Assembly: GCF_038025025.1 (NCBI RefSeq)
Contig: NW_027117347.1
Coordinates: 1,426,001-1,490,000 of the forward strand
Source of the DNA: Phyllosticta citribraziliensis
Taxonomy: Eukaryota
Length of the DNA: 64,000 nt
Reading direction: 5' to 3'
The notes beneath the pieces are model-generated. The model did not search any database. It saw only the letters and a list, made by a program, of their open reading frames with translations, and was not told the DNA's origin. Made by a program: the position numbers and the translations under genes. Of this stretch, positions 1,782 through 53,517 are shown in pieces (the first letter of the stretch is position 1; every line of letters starts with the position of its first letter).

Positions 1782-4275
1782 TGTGTGGGAGAGTTTTCAG
1801 ATGATTGATTCTTTAGGGTGTCCGCGAAAGAGTAAGACACAAAGTTGCAGGCTAGCCACTGAGGCATAATTTCTTTCCCCGGCGCCAACGCTTCCTATAT
1901 ATTTCCTGGACCGCACGAAGCAGTAAACACCCCGCAAAAAGGACCTCCCGACTAGCGCCGCCAAATCCGCAGCCAAGCTCTCGCAACAGCACCACCGCAG
2001 CCCCCTGAAACGCCTCGACAGACGCAAATGACGTTTGGCGCCTGCCCTCGAAATTCAGGCTCACGCCATGATTGGACGACCCCGTCGCAACGCGCGCCGG
2101 CGGTTTTCGCTCTGCAGGCTAGCTCGTCGGACTTATGCTCTCCACACCAGCTAGCGCTCGCGTCTTGTGTAGCTACGGCGCAGCCAAGCTACTAGAAGGC
2201 GTGCGTCTCGCTGCATCCCCGTGTGTGCGGCGGTTGATCGCCGCCTTGGCTGGGCAGAGAAGCACTGCCAAGCGTGGTGGTCTGTCGTCTGTTACGTACT
2301 TGTGGGGAAATCGTGTCGATGAGACTCGCCTTGGTATTCTTGGGGGTTCGCTGACGCACTTCCGCGTGTAGGTCGTCAATAGTGCCTTATATTCGCCGCT
2401 GATATTACCTGCTTGTCCAAAGGGGGACCCAGAGACTGGAACAGTTGAGGCATTTGATCAGCGACGACGATGGTGCGTTTTGCGCCGAGCAATTGAAGCG
2501 GTAGTATGTACTTCGAGCCTACATGGTGAGTCTTCCATCTGCCAGAATCGAGTGGCTAGTCGAGACGCGGCATAGACGGCAGTTATCGCAATTTGTTTTG
2601 CATTCGGACTTGTTTGGTCGGGAATTTTCCTTCTGGCTTCTACCGGGCAAATTACTGCGCGCCTTCTATCTTCCAAGCTCTTTCCTGTCCCCTTCTTGGC
2701 CGAATCGTCACCGGCGGATACTTCAACAACTCGAAGCAGAGGAGCTCGAGATTGGAATCCACGGCAATGAGGCTGCGACTGGTCCTTCGATATTTCCAAG
2801 GAGCTTGGCTCTACTATTAGACCATGACAAGATGATCAGAAGCACAGACGAATGCAGGTTTCAAACAAGTAGAGGCGGGTCCAGCCGGCCAAGAGGGTCA
2901 TGCTCCGGATAAGATCACCAAGCACTTGGTAGATGGTTTCAGACCACCGGTACCCGTGAGAAGGCCAAAGGATGATATTCTATGGGAACGAGCGAGTCAA
3001 TGCCGCGAATTGATTTCCAGACAGTGCGGCATTATCCATATGCACATTTGGCGGTTGTGACTGGATCTCGATCGAAGGACTCCGGGACCGCATCTGGCCA
3101 TTATCTTTGCCTTGTGTTTTAAAGTACTGGCGGCAATGTGTGCTTGAGCTTGAGCAGGGGAAGTTAATGAAGAGTCGGTCGTCTTGAATCCACTACGTTC
3201 GAACACTGATATGTGGGAGGCGTCGGACTCCATTGCTGGTCGCCAAGTGATGGGCTGCAAGCTTCTAGTATTCTTGGTGCGAAGGTTGTGTGCAAGAAGA
3301 CATCTGCGAATTTGAAGATGATGTACAAGCCTTCTTGCCTTCTGATTGGCCGAAAGGTCGTATAAGCTTGCCCGAAGGCCAAAGGAACCAATCCACTTTC
3401 TGCACCACCAGTCCAAACCTGCTCCAGCAGACATGGTGCGGACGTTATCTTTACGGCTTCAAATGTCCAGTCATCTATCATCTGTGGTCAAACTCATGCG
3501 TCTGGAGCCTGGGATGGGGATAAGCGAGGATAAGCGCCGGGTGGCTGGCAGTCATGTGCAGCTATATCCAAGGGCGCAGCACACTGCTGACTGTGTGGTA
3601 GCCGACGGCAGCCGTGTTGTGACAGGTAGCCTGCCGCAAGGTACAATGCGCGTAGCTCGCAGTGACATCATCCAGAGCAAGGGATGTAAAGCTTGGCCTG
3701 GAATGCGCTCCGCTTCACTTGACGACGTCGCGATTGAACCGCGCAGAGGCACGGTAGGGGATGGAAAATGTACGGCCGACGCTGCTCATTCTTCAGCTGG
3801 TGGTCTTGCAAAAAGAAATTCAATGTTGCACGTTGGCTTGGCACAGCAATGCCGCAGGCCGTAGGGCTTGTATAGCGTAGGACACAAATAGATAGTCTGG
3901 TACGCCTTTCAAGCCGGCACATGCATTGCACTGATAAGACGACAATTGAACTTGTGCAGATGAAGCGAGAATTGCGATGGCAATGGTCCTGGGCTTTAGA
4001 CTTTCCTTAATCGGAGCAAACTGCGTGGGGGATTCCATGGCCTCGGCTGGCAGGCCAGAAGAATCGCTGGCCCACCGAACGATGCGCAAAAGATTTGTCG
4101 TCTGGAGACAGCGGTGTCGGACGATGACGGGCGTTTATCTGGTCCAGACGGCGAGGGGATGCGGCAGAAGAGGGCGTTTGAAGTAGTTGACAGGCGCAGC
4201 CAAGGTCGGGCTCGGCTCAAAGCCCTGACATGCGCGGCCACGGGACTCCACTCAACACCTGCGCACAGATCCATC

Positions 4276-4584: not shown

Positions 4585-5767
4585 ATGACACACGCACCCA
4601 CGCTCCAACCCAAGTTCCTGCCGCACCGCGATGAATTGGGAGTCGTCGCAGTCGGTTACTCCGGCGGACAGGTAAGGTGCACCGATCCAGGCACGTTCCC
4701 AGCTGCATGCTGATGCGGTGCGCTTTCAACAGAGGAAATCTGGCGTTGATGCCGCACCCATGGCACTCATCGAGGCTGGTTTGCTCGACCAGCTCAAGGA
4801 CGACCTCGAATTCAACATCAGCTTCGATGGACAAGTGCACAACTACTCTCACGTCATCCCCAAGCAAGACGCCGACCACCGCAACATGAAGTCGCCGCGG
4901 TCGAGTAGTGCGGTCAACAAAGAGCTCAGCCAGCAGGTCTACGAGCACGCATCGAAAGGGCGGTTCGTCCTGACTCTCGGCGGTGATCATTCCATTGCCA
5001 TCGGGTCCATCTCCGGCACCGCGAAGGCCACCCGCGAAAGGCTGGGACGGGAGATCGCCGTCATCTGGGTCGACGCTCACGCTGACATCAACACGCCCGA
5101 GACGTCGGACAGCGGCAACATTCACGGCATGCCCGTGGCCTTTCTGACGGGCTTGGCCAAGGAAGACCGGGATGACATATTTGGCTGGATCCAGGACGAG
5201 CACCGGATCAACACAAAGAAGCTTGTATACATCGGTCTGCGAGACATTGACAAGGGCGAGAAGAAGATTTTGAGGGACAACGGCATCAAGGCCTTTTCGA
5301 TGCACGACATTGACAGGTCCGTCGTCCTCCTCCTGGGGCCCCTGCGGCCATCAGTCTGACCCCGCGTCATCGGTTCCCCGACTGACTTATTATTAGGTAC
5401 GGCATCGGCAAGGTCGTCGACATGGCTCTCGGGTGGATTGGCAGCGACACTCCCATCCACCTCTCATTCGACATTGACAGTCTCGATCCCCAATGGGCGC
5501 CCAGCACGGGTACTCCCGTTCGAGGGGGTTTGACGCTGCGCGAGGGTGACTTCATCGCCGAGTGCGTGGCCGAGACAGGCAGCCTGATAGCGCTCGATCT
5601 CGTCGAGGTCAATCCCAGCCTCGAAGTGCAGGTACGTAGCAGTTTAAATACCGTCGCCATGGCCGAGCCTTATCCGACTGACTCTAGTTGATCTGCAGGG
5701 CGCGTCTGAAACGATCCGTGCGGGCTGCAGCATCGTCCGCTGCGCATTGGGCGATACGCTGCTGTAA
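4585..5767 (+). CDS. CAR1: Arginase (exons 4585-4671, 4733-5316, 5397-5631, 5699-5767; alternative in-frame ATG at 4465)
   Basis: Ureohydrolase Mn-binding motifs [31 protein letters not shown] and TGTPVRGG. Three GT-AG introns join the ORFs in frame. Confidence 0.97.
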
Positions 5768-50358: not shown

Positions 50359-52839
50359 TCACTGCTCCATCTCGCCAAAATCCCACGAGTAATCGCCAGC
50401 ACCGCCGCTCATCTCCCCGGCCCCCGCAAGCACGCTGTCCATGCCCTCCTCAAACGGATCCCACATGGCCCCCAAGCTGGCCCCGCCCTCGCCGCCAAAC
50501 GCGCCCGCGCCCCCGCACGACACGGGGATGAGCGGGTCGCCGAGCGGCTGCAGGTCGAAGCCGGCCCCGGCGTTGCCAGCGCTCGCCGCGTCGGCGAAGA
50601 AGCTGCCGCCGGCGGCCATGGGCGGAGGCGACGAGGGAGGCGTCGAGAAGGGGTTGCTGACTGTGCGGCCCGACGACGTGCGCTTGGGCTTGCTGGGCGA
50701 CGACGCTCGCGCGCTGGCGCGGGCGCTGGAGCCCTTGGGCACGCACAGCATGTTGTCTGAGGATGAGTCTTTGGCGGGAGAGGAGGTGCCGTGGAGGTAG
50801 TCGTCGTGGTCGGGGACGGGGGACATGGGCGGCGTGGCGACGCCGTCAAAGGGATGCGAGGACTGGAGTTGGAGGAGGTCCGATTCGTCGTTGTTGACGG
50901 GGTCGGAAAGTTCGAGGTCGAGTTTGCTGTCGTCGACTGGCTGGGGCGCAGGCGAGAGTTGTGGGTCGAACGGGCTCGAGGCAGCTTCGGCGTTGAAACT
51001 GTTTGGCAACGACGTTAGGCTTGGGTCAACTGGGCTGGTTGAAGAAGCTGGTGACAAGACGGCTGACAGTGCAGAGTGCAGAGAACGCTCCAAAGACTCG
51101 TTGGGCTTGAAATCTGATAGTGCTGAAGGGGCCACGCAATCTGAAGGCGCTGAAAGAGTCGCAAACGCTGATGGTGTTGTGGAAGCAGCTGGCAATGGGG
51201 ACGCTGGGGAATCCAAATCAAGTGCTGAAGGTGACGATGCTGGGAATTCTGATTCTGCTGACCTTGAGCTGAACGAGGAAGGGACGTCAGAGTGGTGCAG
51301 GGCATGGAGGTTCGTAAACCTCGCAGAGTCGCACTCGTGGACGTTTGCTGCTGGTGAGTAACCAGACGAGCCGGGCGAGTCGTCCGACGACGCGGACGAC
51401 TCGTAATTGGAGGCCAGGGCCTTGCGCGTCCTGCTGGACTTTTCGAGACGCTCCTCCATCTCGGGCCTGTGCTTGCGAGGGCGGCCACGGCGGGCCTGCT
51501 TCTTGACGGCGCCGGGAAAGGCGCCATCGCACATGCCACGCTGACGATGTCGGGTCAGAGCGTCTTGACGCGCAAAGCCGGCGCCACAAGGACACTTGTA
51601 CGGTTTGTCGCCCGTGTGAATCTTTGCGTGGCGCTTGAGGTCGTGCTGGCGGACGAAGCACTTGCCGCAATGGTTGCAGCGGTACTGACGGTCTCCCAGA
51701 TGTGTTTGGACGTGGGAGCGAATATTCTCCCGGCGCCCAAACGTCTTGCCGCAATCTGGGAAGAGGCAGGTCCAGCGGTGGTTATTGGGATCCTGCTCAC
51801 TGATGTAGGCTTGAATCTCTTCGGTAGTGATTCCCGTCTCTTCAATTGAACCGTCGAGGTTGAGCTCGGCAAACGGCATGGCTTGTGGCGACATGTCGTG
51901 CTTTACGGGGACTGGAGAGAGCAGTCCGTCCATTTCCGTGCTACTTCTTGACATGGGCACAAGAGACGGACGGCGTGAGAGAGACAGTTGAGGGCCAGGA
52001 GCGAGGTGACCATGGTGCTGGAAAGCCCTCTGGCGGGGCGAGGTCGACGGCGAGCAGCCAGGCGATATTGCATCGGACGAGTACAGCGACGAGTCGTAGC
52101 CATTGTCGCTCTCGTGGGTGGCCAAGCTGAAGTTGAAGCCGTGGTCGTCGGCCGGGGGCTGAAGATTGATCTCGCAGGCATCGCTGAAGCTCGATGGCAT
52201 TGGCGCGATGTCGAGGTGGTCGAGGGGCGTCATTGGTGATGACTTGTTGGACTGCGTGACCTGTGGCGGCAGGATGCTGACTTGTACAGTTGCACTTGTG
52301 CCGTAGACGGCGCGAATGTGCCGCTCGAGATCATGCAGTTGTTGAGGAGAGGGTTGAAGAGGATGAGGAGGAGGAGCATGTTGAAGAGGAGGTGGAGGAG
52401 GGTGAGGCCCACCCTGGCCTAGAGGTGGCTGGGCGGGCGAGAGAGGGTGGTGAGGGTGAGGTTGAGGTTGATTGAGGTGAGCTGCTGGATCCTGAAAGTG
52501 CGGGAACGGGGGTCCCGGCTGAGCCATGCTGTGCTGCTGCGCTACTTGCAAGGTATGCTGTGGGTGGGTTTGTCCTATGTTAGTACCGTTACTTACCTGG
52601 TTGTCGCCCTGGGGAATTGTGCTTGGCTGGTGGTTAGCTGGGGGGCCCATCCGGTCCGGGAATGGCGACAGAAGCTGGGGCTTCTGGTCGACGCTCATTC
52701 CCCTTCGGTGGAAGTGTTGTCGTTGAGCCATGTTGGGCATAGGTTGTACTTGTGGCGCCTCGAATATGGTTGGCGTGGAGTTTTGACGGCGGTGCATTTG
52801 CCTCCGCTGTTGGATACTCGAGGTCGGATTGGACAGCAT
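50359..52839 (-). CDS. ACE2: Ace2/Swi5-like C2H2 zinc-finger transcription factor; 5'UTR intron 53023-52911
   Basis: Zinc fingers CLFPDCGKTFGRRENIRSHVQTH, CNHCGKCFVRQHDLKRHAKIH and CPCGAGFARQDALTRHRQRGMC, then RGRPRK. N-terminal HRRQNS and HRRGMS. Confidence 0.88.
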   Translation of the reverse strand: MLSNPTSSIQQRRQMHRRQNSTPTIFEAPQVQPMPNMAQRQHFHRRGMSVDQKPQLLSPFPDRMGPPANHQPSTIPQGDNQVSNGTNIGQTHPQHTLQVAQQHSMAQPGPPFPHFQDPAAHLNQPQPHPHHPLSPAQPPLGQGGPHPPPPPLQHAPPPHPLQPSPQQLHDLERHIRAVYGTSATVQVSILPPQVTQSNKSSPMTPLDHLDIAPMPSSFSDACEINLQPPADDHGFNFSLATHESDNGYDSSLYSSDAISPGCSPSTSPRQRAFQHHGHLAPGPQLSLSRRPSLVPMSRSSTEMDGLLSPVPVKHDMSPQAMPFAELNLDGSIEETGITTEEIQAYISEQDPNNHRWTCLFPDCGKTFGRRENIRSHVQTHLGDRQYRCNHCGKCFVRQHDLKRHAKIHTGDKPYKCPCGAGFARQDALTRHRQRGMCDGAFPGAVKKQARRGRPRKHRPEMEERLEKSSRTRKALASNYESSASSDDSPGSSGYSPAANVHECDSARFTNLHALHHSDVPSSFSSRSAESEFPASSPSALDLDSPASPLPAASTTPSAFATLSAPSDCVAPSALSDFKPNESLERSLHSALSAVLSPASSTSPVDPSLTSLPNSFNAEAASSPFDPQLSPAPQPVDDSKLDLELSDPVNNDESDLLQLQSSHPFDGVATPPMSPVPDHDDYLHGTSSPAKDSSSDNMLCVPKGSSARASARASSPSKPKRTSSGRTVSNPFSTPPSSPPPMAAGGSFFADAASAGNAGAGFDLQPLGDPLIPVSCGGAGAFGGEGGASLGAMWDPFEEGMDSVLAGAGEMSGGAGDYSWDFGEMEQ

Positions 52840-53482
52840 TTTCGATGCAGGTCGAGTCCGGAAAGGGCGCTTTTGTAGAAGACGTTTCGGATATCCTCCG
52901 TGTTCCGAATCTGCATCGTGAGAGTCAGTCGTGGTGTTGTGGTCGCGGCGACGACATGATCCGCGGGATGATCTACGAATGCTCCGAGCTCGAGCTCGAG
53001 CTCGATAGATAAAATGCACTCACCTCGCGCAGTGCAAGCGGCGCCCGCCGGGCTATAGGAAAGGTCGGGTTCCGCTCAGCAGAAGTGTAGGGGTTGAAAT
53101 TCGCAGCAGCTCAGAGATGCAGGTGTGGGCTTGGCAGCCTCAGCTTCGTGCAGGAGAGACGGACGGCGAGCTCTCCCCGGAAGAGGGTCTTGAGAGGTTG
53201 TCTTGTGGTTTGTTGTGGTGGGAAGAGTGGTGGAGTGGAAGCCAATTGAAGACGGAGTCTCGACGGCAGAGGAGTGTACACGAGGAGCAGAGCAGAGCAG
53301 AAGGTGCAGATGTGAGATGGGAGAGGAGTTGATGTAGGCGGCACGCCAAAACAGTCAACAGCTCAGAAGCTGTCCGGGTAACCAAACGTCAGGACCGGGG
53401 TGACGCACCAGCCACTGGACGACGCCCCGACCAGCGCAGGCAGGCGACACCCGGACCCGGACCCGCGACGATCGTGCCTGCC

Positions 53483-53517
53483 GTGGCTGCCTGGCTGCCT
53501 GGCTGCCTGGCTGCCTG
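53483..53517. repeat. (TGGCTGCC)n octamer tandem repeat in the ACE2/RPS31 divergent spacer
   Basis: About four units read directly. Confidence 0.8.

Follow-up and report, generated by a model that had tools for sequence, protein, structure and literature searches.

Splice signals fixed at synonymous sites within ACE2 codons of Phyllosticta citribraziliensis and its relatives mark a candidate in-frame mini-intron

Introns that lie within protein-coding exons, known as exitrons, are found in plants and humans and usually have weak splice sites, and ultra-short spliceosomal introns occur genome-wide in microsporidia, ciliates and myxozoans, which have adapted machinery. In yeasts, the intron of PTC7 has a length that is a multiple of three, contains no stop codon and is both retained and spliced (PMC7491326), and the BDF2 messenger RNA (mRNA) of budding yeast undergoes spliceosome-mediated decay, with the spliceosome acting as a repressor (PMC3792478). 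Here we analyze a splice donor, a branch site and acceptor AGs that are packed into the codons of ACE2, a predicted transcription factor gene, on the minus strand of a 64,000-nucleotide (nt) stretch of the fungus Phyllosticta citribraziliensis (contig NW_027117347.1, positions 1,426,001 to 1,490,000; hereafter “the window”, to which coordinates refer). The signals are conserved in related genes, which suggests that the splicing machinery acts on the stretch although the main mRNA keeps it.

The closest precedent is the in-frame, translated PTC7 intron of yeasts. In Saccharomyces and its relatives that intron, like the ACE2 element, lies in the coding sequence, is a multiple of three in length, lacks a stop codon in each species and has splice sites at or near consensus; its retained form is translated, its geometry is that of an ordinary intron, and both isoforms are seen by RNA sequencing (RNA-seq), as PMC7491326 describes them. 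The ACE2 element, unlike PTC7, has a donor-branch spacer of 0-6 nt and a unit of 30-45 nt, has been seen (indirectly) in the retained form only, and is conserved over four Pezizomycotina classes. With exitrons it shares an internal position in a coding exon with splicing potential, divisibility by three and an effect on a disordered protein region, the difference being that its sites are perfect but too close together; the listed literature, by title and the start of the abstract, holds no paper on an exitron in a fungus. The likeness to BDF2 is that the signals are badly placed for the second step of splicing, with the difference that in BDF2 the distance from branch site to 3′ splice site is long, whereas here the distance from donor to branch site is extremely short; the sequence feature that PMC3792478 gives for such a decay target is present in the window and in the distinct contexts of the element (see below). 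Ultra-short introns likewise pack donor, branch-like A and AG into 15-30 nt. The introns of the window differ from them, being 38-119 nt long with a donor-branch distance of at least 28 nt (15 candidates, defined by pattern and not validated). In Candida albicans, Ace2 isoforms are reportedly made by alternative translation starts, which sets them apart from isoforms made by splicing. They number two (PMC4398349), and the resemblance is that of the same factor family with two N-terminally different forms of different behaviour.

In the ACE2 frame the minus strand of the window reads CAG/GTAAGT-AACGG-TACTAAC-ATAG/G (slashes mark splice boundaries) and, 17 nt on, a further CAG at 52560-52558. 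The CAG before the donor occupies 52599-52597, ATAG ends with the AG at 52576-52575, and the peptide Q-V-S-N-G-T-N-I-G runs across the signals with no interruption of the frame. The original prediction, made from the letters of the window, had placed the donor at 52596, the branch site at 52585-52579, the AG at 52575 and the second CAG at 52558 inside an open frame, and all of these positions were confirmed on the minus strand. The parts of the element and its surroundings are as follows.

52591-52597, minus strand: donor G/GTAAGT, last exon G at 52597 and first intron G at 52596, read as Val82-Ser83 (sequence and orthologue constraint).
52579-52585, minus strand: branch-site consensus TACTAAC, branch A at 52580, read as (G)T-N (sequence and orthologue constraint).
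52573-52576, minus strand: proximal AG/GA, its AG ending 5 nt after the branch A, which would close a 22-nt micro-intron of 3k+1 length (sequence and orthologue constraint).
52558-52596, minus strand: candidate in-frame mini-intron (exitron) of 39 nt or 13 codons, residues 82-94 (VSNGTNIGQTHPQ), with no stop codon, closing with ACAG/ at 52561-52558.
52537-52538, minus strand: second in-frame AG (GCGCAG/CAG), with which the same donor would give a 60-nt intron; CGCA is invariant (32/32).
52609-52611, minus strand: upstream CAG of a purine-rich CAGG(A/G) stretch, its synonymous site fixed (Gln is CAG in 35/35).
52514-52557, minus strand: downstream coding block under unexplained synonymous constraint, from ..TG CAA GTA GCG CAG.. 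to ..CCG GG (orthologue codon counts).

The pattern GTAAGT-N(0-20)-ACTAAC matches the window once, where 0.03 matches would be expected; of 100 shuffled sequences, 3 matched it at least once. Such a rate implies roughly a dozen chance matches in a genome of ~30 Mb, so that the window alone cannot exclude chance; it is the conservation of the signals in orthologues that excludes it. We scanned metagenome contigs with protein alignment and obtained 80 loci that encode relatives, which by their nearest named protein belong to Dothideomycetes (38), Leotiomycetes (22), Lecanoromycetes (13) and Chaetothyriales (7); Sordariomycetes were represented by protein sequences. Codons were counted in 40 distinct N-terminal segments, the window included, and spacing and context in 37 distinct contexts of the element. 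Of the 80 loci, 50 contain a single copy of the pattern GTAAG[TC]-N(0-15)-ACTAAC, which makes 50 of the 65 that hold the N-terminal region; the remaining 30 comprise 15 without that region and 15 with variants of the element. In all 50, the donor-branch pair precedes the zinc fingers by 770-1270 nt, and the reading frame divides it into the codons GTA-AGT .. ACT-AAC.

The codons that spell the signals are held far beyond what the peptide demands of them. The original prediction had proposed that V-S and T-N would be kept as splice letters, and no free synonymous variation is seen: the donor Val codon is GTA in 40/40 segments, the donor Ser codon is AGT in 39/40 (AGC once) and the branch-site Thr codon is ACT in 34/35. 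After the branch site, Gly is GGA in 38/40 and the codon preceding it ends in A in 38/40, and the closing Gln is CAG in 37/40, following a codon that ends in A. The base at -1 to the GT is G in 33/37 contexts although the residue varies (T, M, S, R, Q, A, L); G makes up 18% of third positions as background, which gives a nominal binomial P of ~1e-20 with relatedness ignored. Elsewhere in the same genes codon choice is much looser. The kinase-site columns (HRRQNSTP, HRRGMSLD) of the same alignment use 2-6 codons each, and across the 48 conserved zinc-finger columns of these 40 genes the commonest codon has a median share of 0.54, reaching 0.95 in none of them; GTA stands in only 3/40 and 1/40 at zinc-finger Val columns, and AGT accounts for 5% of Ser codons outside the block. 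One locus separates the letters from the amino acid: L064 keeps GTAAGT and has ACT-GAC, replacing Asn by Asp yet maintaining the branch consensus CTRAC. The suggestion in the original prediction that the VS..TN peptide could be a protein shadow of splice signals is thus largely borne out, as the codon counts and L064 indicate for donor and branch site. These counts show purifying selection on the synonymous-site letters of the signals in Dothideomycete-, Leotiomycete-, Lecanoromycete- and Chaetothyriales-like genes.

The same letters might be fixed for a reason other than splicing, as a DNA or RNA binding site of another factor or as a second coded product, with the likeness to splice signals coincidental. 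Constraint does extend ~45 nt past any splice signal: codons of the block at 52514-52557 are GCG in 29/29, AGA in 28/28, CCG in 38/38 and GGC in 38/40, and these codons are rare elsewhere. In the orthologue consensus AGGA flanks the core on both sides, and the stretch is retained in the main mRNA, all of which would suit such a role. The case against it is that three consensus signals stand in the correct order, with the -1 G and the branch variant falling within consensus, and that the variable donor-branch spacing of the relatives (0, 3 or 6 nt; 5 nt in the window) argues against a rigid protein site or a hairpin. RNAalifold, run on 32 sequences, found no conserved RNA fold (3 invariant pairs, -1.41 kcal/mol, 0 covarying pairs), and pairing of GTAAGT with ACTAAC is in any case incompatible with a spacer of 0 nt in two distinct contexts. 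An overlapping open reading frame (ORF) is excluded by a TAA within both signals in the other two sense frames. A 3k+1 excision would give a common shifted-frame peptide in three classes, but dual coding after such an excision fails as the general cause of the downstream constraint, which outlasts the shifted-frame stop in Dothideomycetes. We regard a non-splicing role as improbable, and recognition by the splicing machinery as the likely reason why the signals have been selected.

Four further candidates were considered and set aside. The antisense reading, GTTAGT .. ACTTAC, has equally over-close geometry and a poorer branch match. By inspection, +1 frameshifting at GTA-AGT would run into a TAG within ~7 codons in the +1 frame of the window and is not uniform in the relatives. 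Introns of the Ire1 type (HAC1/XBP1) have twin stem-loops with CNGCNGN loops at both cut sites; the 32 aligned sequences have no conserved fold, and the borders here are G/GTAAGT and AG/G. A stwintron, as such introns are described, has an inner intron interrupting the donor, branch site or acceptor of an outer one; here each of the three signals is intact and contiguous, and the ORF covers the stretch throughout.

The stretch is also kept translatable. From the GT to the in-frame CAG, 0/37 contexts have a stop or a frame shift, the lengths being 30, 33, 36, 39, 42 or 45 nt, and the distance from donor G to branch A is 11, 14 or 17 nt. An in-frame CAG/CA follows the branch A at 19-28 nt in 34/37 contexts, and the reading frame is open in all 37. 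Selection on the stretch, as judged from the same orthologues, maintains a length that is a multiple of three and never a stop. An ordinary intron found further down in the Leotiomycete genes behaves differently: its length is 46-48 nt, 9-13 nt separate its branch site from the acceptor, its copies are unrelated in sequence from one species to the next, and 4 of 5 distinct ones shift the frame. This ordinary intron is present in L037 (~4700-4745), L044, L051, L066 and L068, between ..NQNV and YFPLTP.., and the Dothideomycete genes are without it. By chance the L066 copy is open, and some database proteins, P0036 among them, read through it.

Two sets of features can be set against the element. 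Those of an ordinary U2-type intron are shared in part: donor GTRNGT, branch CTRAC and a YAG acceptor stand in order, whereas the length is not the ~42 nt or more expected and the donor-branch spacer is not the longer one (39 or 22 nt; spacer 5 nt), and the stretch is neither missing from mature mRNA nor free of frame and stop preservation (8/8 keep it; 0/37 versus 4/5). Of those of an exitron or PTC7-type intron, the element shares the position within a coding exon, divisibility by three and freedom from stops in orthologues (34/37 with CAG/CA, all 37 open); as to the two mRNA forms, the retained one is supported indirectly in relatives, and the spliced one appears only in gene models. What emerges is an element of perfect signals in imperfect arrangement, and this fits inefficient or conditional use.

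Our tentative preference, held as possible rather than probable, is a weak or conditional in-frame mini-intron of 39 nt, from the GT at 52596 to the AG at 52558, whose removal takes out residues 82-94 and whose retention is the default. G/GTAAGT with TACTAAC 5 nt later and AGs behind it would form an element within ACE2 codons that the splicing machinery recognises. The GT at 52596 would pair with the CAG at 52560-52558, whose AG is the first to lie far enough from the branch A to be usable, and excision would remove 39 nt in frame and with them residues 82-94, which lie between the two Cbk1-type HxRRxS sites and a conserved Q-H-x-L-Q/R motif. With no more than 17 nt between donor and branch A (donor G counted as 1), splicing should be inefficient and retention therefore the default; the spliced share could depend on the state of the cell. 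The original prediction had judged donor and branch A too close for a normal intron, which agrees with the minimum of 28 nt among the window's candidates; its figure of about 16 nt becomes 17 on counting.

The question of what the mature mRNA contains was approached through database proteins. Many ENA, JGI and Logan proteins are plain contig ORFs, and read-throughs of genomic contigs (P0036, P0040, P0054 and others) were excluded. We called cDNA-like (complementary DNA-like) a full-length ORF on a short contig (2.7-4.5 kb) without the ordinary intron; on long contigs the gene is split at that intron, e.g. into 260 + 532 aa or 247 + 537 aa, and some others read through it. All eight cDNA-like ORFs of relatives keep the element (P0041, P0044, P0251, P0048, P0182, P0183, P0208, P0119) and none has the spliced form, where the RNA origin of the short contigs is deduced from the missing ordinary intron and assembled contigs drop minor forms. 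It is thus shown, indirectly, that the mature mRNA of relatives normally retains the stretch, which is not a constitutive intron.

Several observations weigh against the 39-nt mini-intron, beginning with the lack of a spliced form among those eight ORFs. In the Pezizomycotina intron search model of PMC9024468 the minimum length is 42 nt and the minimum branch-acceptor spacer 4 nt, and the donor-branch distance always exceeds the branch-acceptor distance; the unit of 39 nt here and 30-45 nt in relatives is at or below that minimum, and a donor-branch spacer of 0-6 nt is far below the branch-acceptor spacer, the opposite of the rule. Neither the fixed A GGA that follows the branch site nor the constrained block of ~45 nt at 52514-52557 is accounted for. 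Three Chaetothyriales-like sequences have CAA in place of the in-frame CAG, but retain the donor, the branch site and AG/GA. Finally, the gene models without the segment may come from ab initio prediction alone. The branch-to-CAG distance of 19-28 nt, for its part, is ordinary for Pezizomycotina.

The gene models in question differ even within a species. Models of Botrytis cinerea have 768 or 755 aa, the latter lacking exactly the 13 residues from VS to Q, and those of Fusarium avenaceum have 806 or 786 aa versus 789 aa. The GT..CAG segment is also dropped in models of Fusarium beomiforme, Glarea, Coleophoma, Venustampulla, Rutstroemia and Parahypoxylon, and models of Lasiodiplodia, Cudoniella and Cylindrodendrum (P0008, P0129, P0206) end the intron at the next in-frame CAG. 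Such models are evidence that prediction programs recognise an intron at this place, and not that it is spliced in the cell. A literature search turned up no publication on isoforms or splice signals at this ACE2 site; the supplementary tables of fungal splicing surveys, which might list such an event, lay outside it.

The retention in all eight cDNA-like ORFs would also be expected if the spliceosome merely docked on the stretch, with U1 and branch-site factors bound or the first step alone carried out, and decay or nuclear retention lowering or delaying ACE2 mRNA with no second isoform. Donor and branch site are the two invariant parts, the acceptors not being universal (the in-frame CAG is missing in 3/37 contexts, the proximal AG in 1/37), the geometry appears unfit for a complete reaction, and BDF2 is a precedent in which the spliceosome cuts and the products are degraded (PMC3792478). 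Docking leaves the fixation of ACAG/CA and AG/GA unexplained, however, and even the first step by itself needs a lariat loop of just 11-17 nt. We hold this explanation to be rather unlikely.

The loci with variants differ in what they keep. Seven Lecanoromycete-like loci (L047-55) keep GTAAGT with a branch site TTGAC, and L062 and L039 have the donor weakened to GTAAAT with ACTAAC kept. L032, L034 and L059 have lost the donor and retain T-ACTAAC-nnA-GGA, L035 has GTATGG and is without the branch site, and L061 has lost all signals and has relaxed codons further downstream too (CGA for AGA, CTG for TTG). In powdery mildews and Venturia, protein sequences show the motif to be degraded. In L002 (~3190-3215) a second copy, ACT-ACT-AAC-CTA-G, with the peptide TTNLA, lies ~30 nt upstream of the regular element and may be a local duplication of the branch + AG half. 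Oidiodendron-like proteins (P0047, P0048, P0055, P0059, P0254, P0255) have T-A-S-T-T-N where others have V-S; if the codons behind this protein sequence are GCA-AGT, these relatives may carry a donor of the GC-AG type.

The fixed A GGA draws attention to the proximal AG, which would close a true micro-intron of 3k+1 length, 22 nt here (52596-52575) and 16, 19 or 22 nt in relatives. Its removal would shift the frame and switch ACE2 off, with a stop after 10 codons in the window. Spliceosomal introns as short as this are, to our knowledge, not known from Pezizomycotina. The AG stands 5 nt past the branch A in 30/37 contexts and 8 nt past it in 5/37, nnA GGA is fixed in 38/40 segments, which a 39-nt unit does not explain, and two NCBI models, P0180 (Cadophora malorum) and P0219 (Leptodophora sp.), excise exactly the 19-nt unit GTAAGT..ACTAAC..CAG. 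Furthermore, in the window and in each of the 20 other distinct contexts with CAA GTA GCG, a TAG within that invariant stretch closes the shifted frame after 9-12 codons. That outcome is not uniform, however, as the shifted frame stays open for 27-116 codons in other classes; many Leotiomycete copies have AAG, a poor acceptor, and L070 is without any proximal AG. P0180 and P0219 look like predictor artefacts because they start in an upstream alternative frame that has stops in five loci (L037, L080, L066, L051, L063). The proximal AG is also nearer the branch site than the 4-nt minimum of the Pezizomycotina model (PMC9024468). We consider a productive micro-intron improbable. As a separate observation, the alternative frame, where it covers the N-terminal exon of ACE2 in the Cadophora-like L076 and L078 (3877-4186), begins at an upstream ATG and runs for 104 codons without a stop.

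The remaining explanation involves the rest of the gene, whose frame on the minus strand is open from 53019 to 50359. Its main features are these.

50359-52839, minus strand: coding sequence of an ACE2/SWI5-type C2H2 transcription factor, ATG at 52839, stop codon at 50361-50359, 826 aa when read straight through.
52777-52794, minus strand: HRRQNS, residues 16-21, first HxRRxS match to the NDR-kinase (Cbk1) consensus (sequence motif; putative site).
52693-52710, minus strand: HRRGMS, residues 44-49, second HxRRxS match (sequence motif; putative site).
52911-53023, minus strand: candidate ordinary intron of the 5′ untranslated region (5′UTR), 113 nt, GAG/GTGAGT .. GACTGAC .. TGCAG/A (sequence signals).

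N-terminal HxRRxS sites for the NDR kinase Cbk1 are a feature of Ace2 in yeast. Ace2 is the output of the RAM/NDR-kinase pathway, which in fungi controls septation, cell separation and conidiation. Pfam finds zf-C2H2 (E 5e-10) and zf-H2C2_2 in the window's protein, whose C-terminal half holds three consecutive Swi5/Ace2-type C2H2 fingers that are near-invariant in protein alignment A1 and in all 40 orthologue DNAs. The two N-terminal motifs that the original prediction had read as HxRxxS sites are indeed there; they are conserved in protein alignments A1 and A2, with codons that vary freely among orthologues. A Phyllosticta citribraziliensis protein matches the N-terminal 330 aa at 100% identity, and those of sister Phyllosticta species match them at 90-99%. 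Source names of distant relatives are ACE2, SWI5 and metallothionein expression activator, P0008 being called “Cell wall transcription factor ACE2” and JGI members “regulatory protein SWI5”; these are names and not functional evidence. By its zinc fingers, its HxRRxS motifs and the naming of its relatives, the gene is assigned to the Ace2/Swi5-type C2H2 transcription factors.

On this gene the original prediction had built two mutually exclusive, overlapping introns. In one, the branch site and AG would serve the 5′UTR donor, skipping the ATG exon with both kinase sites and restarting translation at MAQPG; in the other, GTAAGT would serve a far acceptor and remove central parts of the protein. 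The three loci that keep T-ACTAAC-nnA-GGA without a donor (L032, L034, L059) may mean that the branch + AG half has a use of its own, and the Diplodia and Neofusicoccum models (P0009, P0011) do pair the donor with a far acceptor. The first route fails on conservation, the restart Met being replaced in relatives, which have RLAQPG or SQPQPG, and a junction from the 5′UTR to 52574 is in none of the 262 proteins, from models and contigs, scanned by script. Nor does the second carry over, since the window has CAA and not CAG at the place that matches the far acceptor of P0009 and P0011. Moreover, none of the upstream donors in the coding part is under synonymous constraint. We think the two-intron model very improbable; the data need fewer assumptions if there is one short excision, or docking alone.

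Other features of the gene and its neighbourhood were noted in passing. The candidate 5′UTR intron (52911-53023, minus strand) contains a run of the hexamer GAGCTC at ~52984-53004, and a run of the octamer CAGGCAGC lies upstream of ACE2 at ~53486-53517. Translations place a ubiquitin-fusion gene from ~53741 on the plus strand, head to head with ACE2, and the Botrytis ACE2-orthologue cluster also holds a 77-aa ubiquitin-like protein and a 1042-aa fused model, so that the ACE2/ubiquitin neighbourhood may be old. Within ACE2, a 264-nt in-frame, stop-free candidate intron at 50999-51262 (minus strand; AAG/GTCAGC .. CTAAC at 51018-51014 .. AACAG/T) is excised in the sister Phyllosticta models P0003, P0004 and P0005 and retained in P0002 and P0006, and its 88 residues are missing from every non-Phyllosticta orthologue in alignment A1. 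The same-species model P0002 omits 28 residues of the C-terminal region (~50437-50520, minus strand) that are present in sister-species models.

The element explains why annotations disagree within a species, by 13-17 residues or by a wholly different N-terminus, which would make it either a recurring annotation error or an isoform. How closely a 5′ splice site and a branch site may be spaced and still engage the fungal spliceosome is a question for which the element provides a natural test. A bolder and, in our view, unlikely claim is that ACE2 of Pezizomycotina, and perhaps no other gene, carries a 16-22-nt spliceosomal micro-intron with a lariat loop of 11-17 nt, whose excision or abortive first step frameshifts or destroys the mRNA. 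If true, it would be the shortest spliceosomal substrate known in filamentous fungi, and an ancient splicing-based off switch or dosage control of a transcription factor of the RAM pathway. A cassette fixed at synonymous sites in at least four classes suggests an unrecognised RNA-level control of Ace2.

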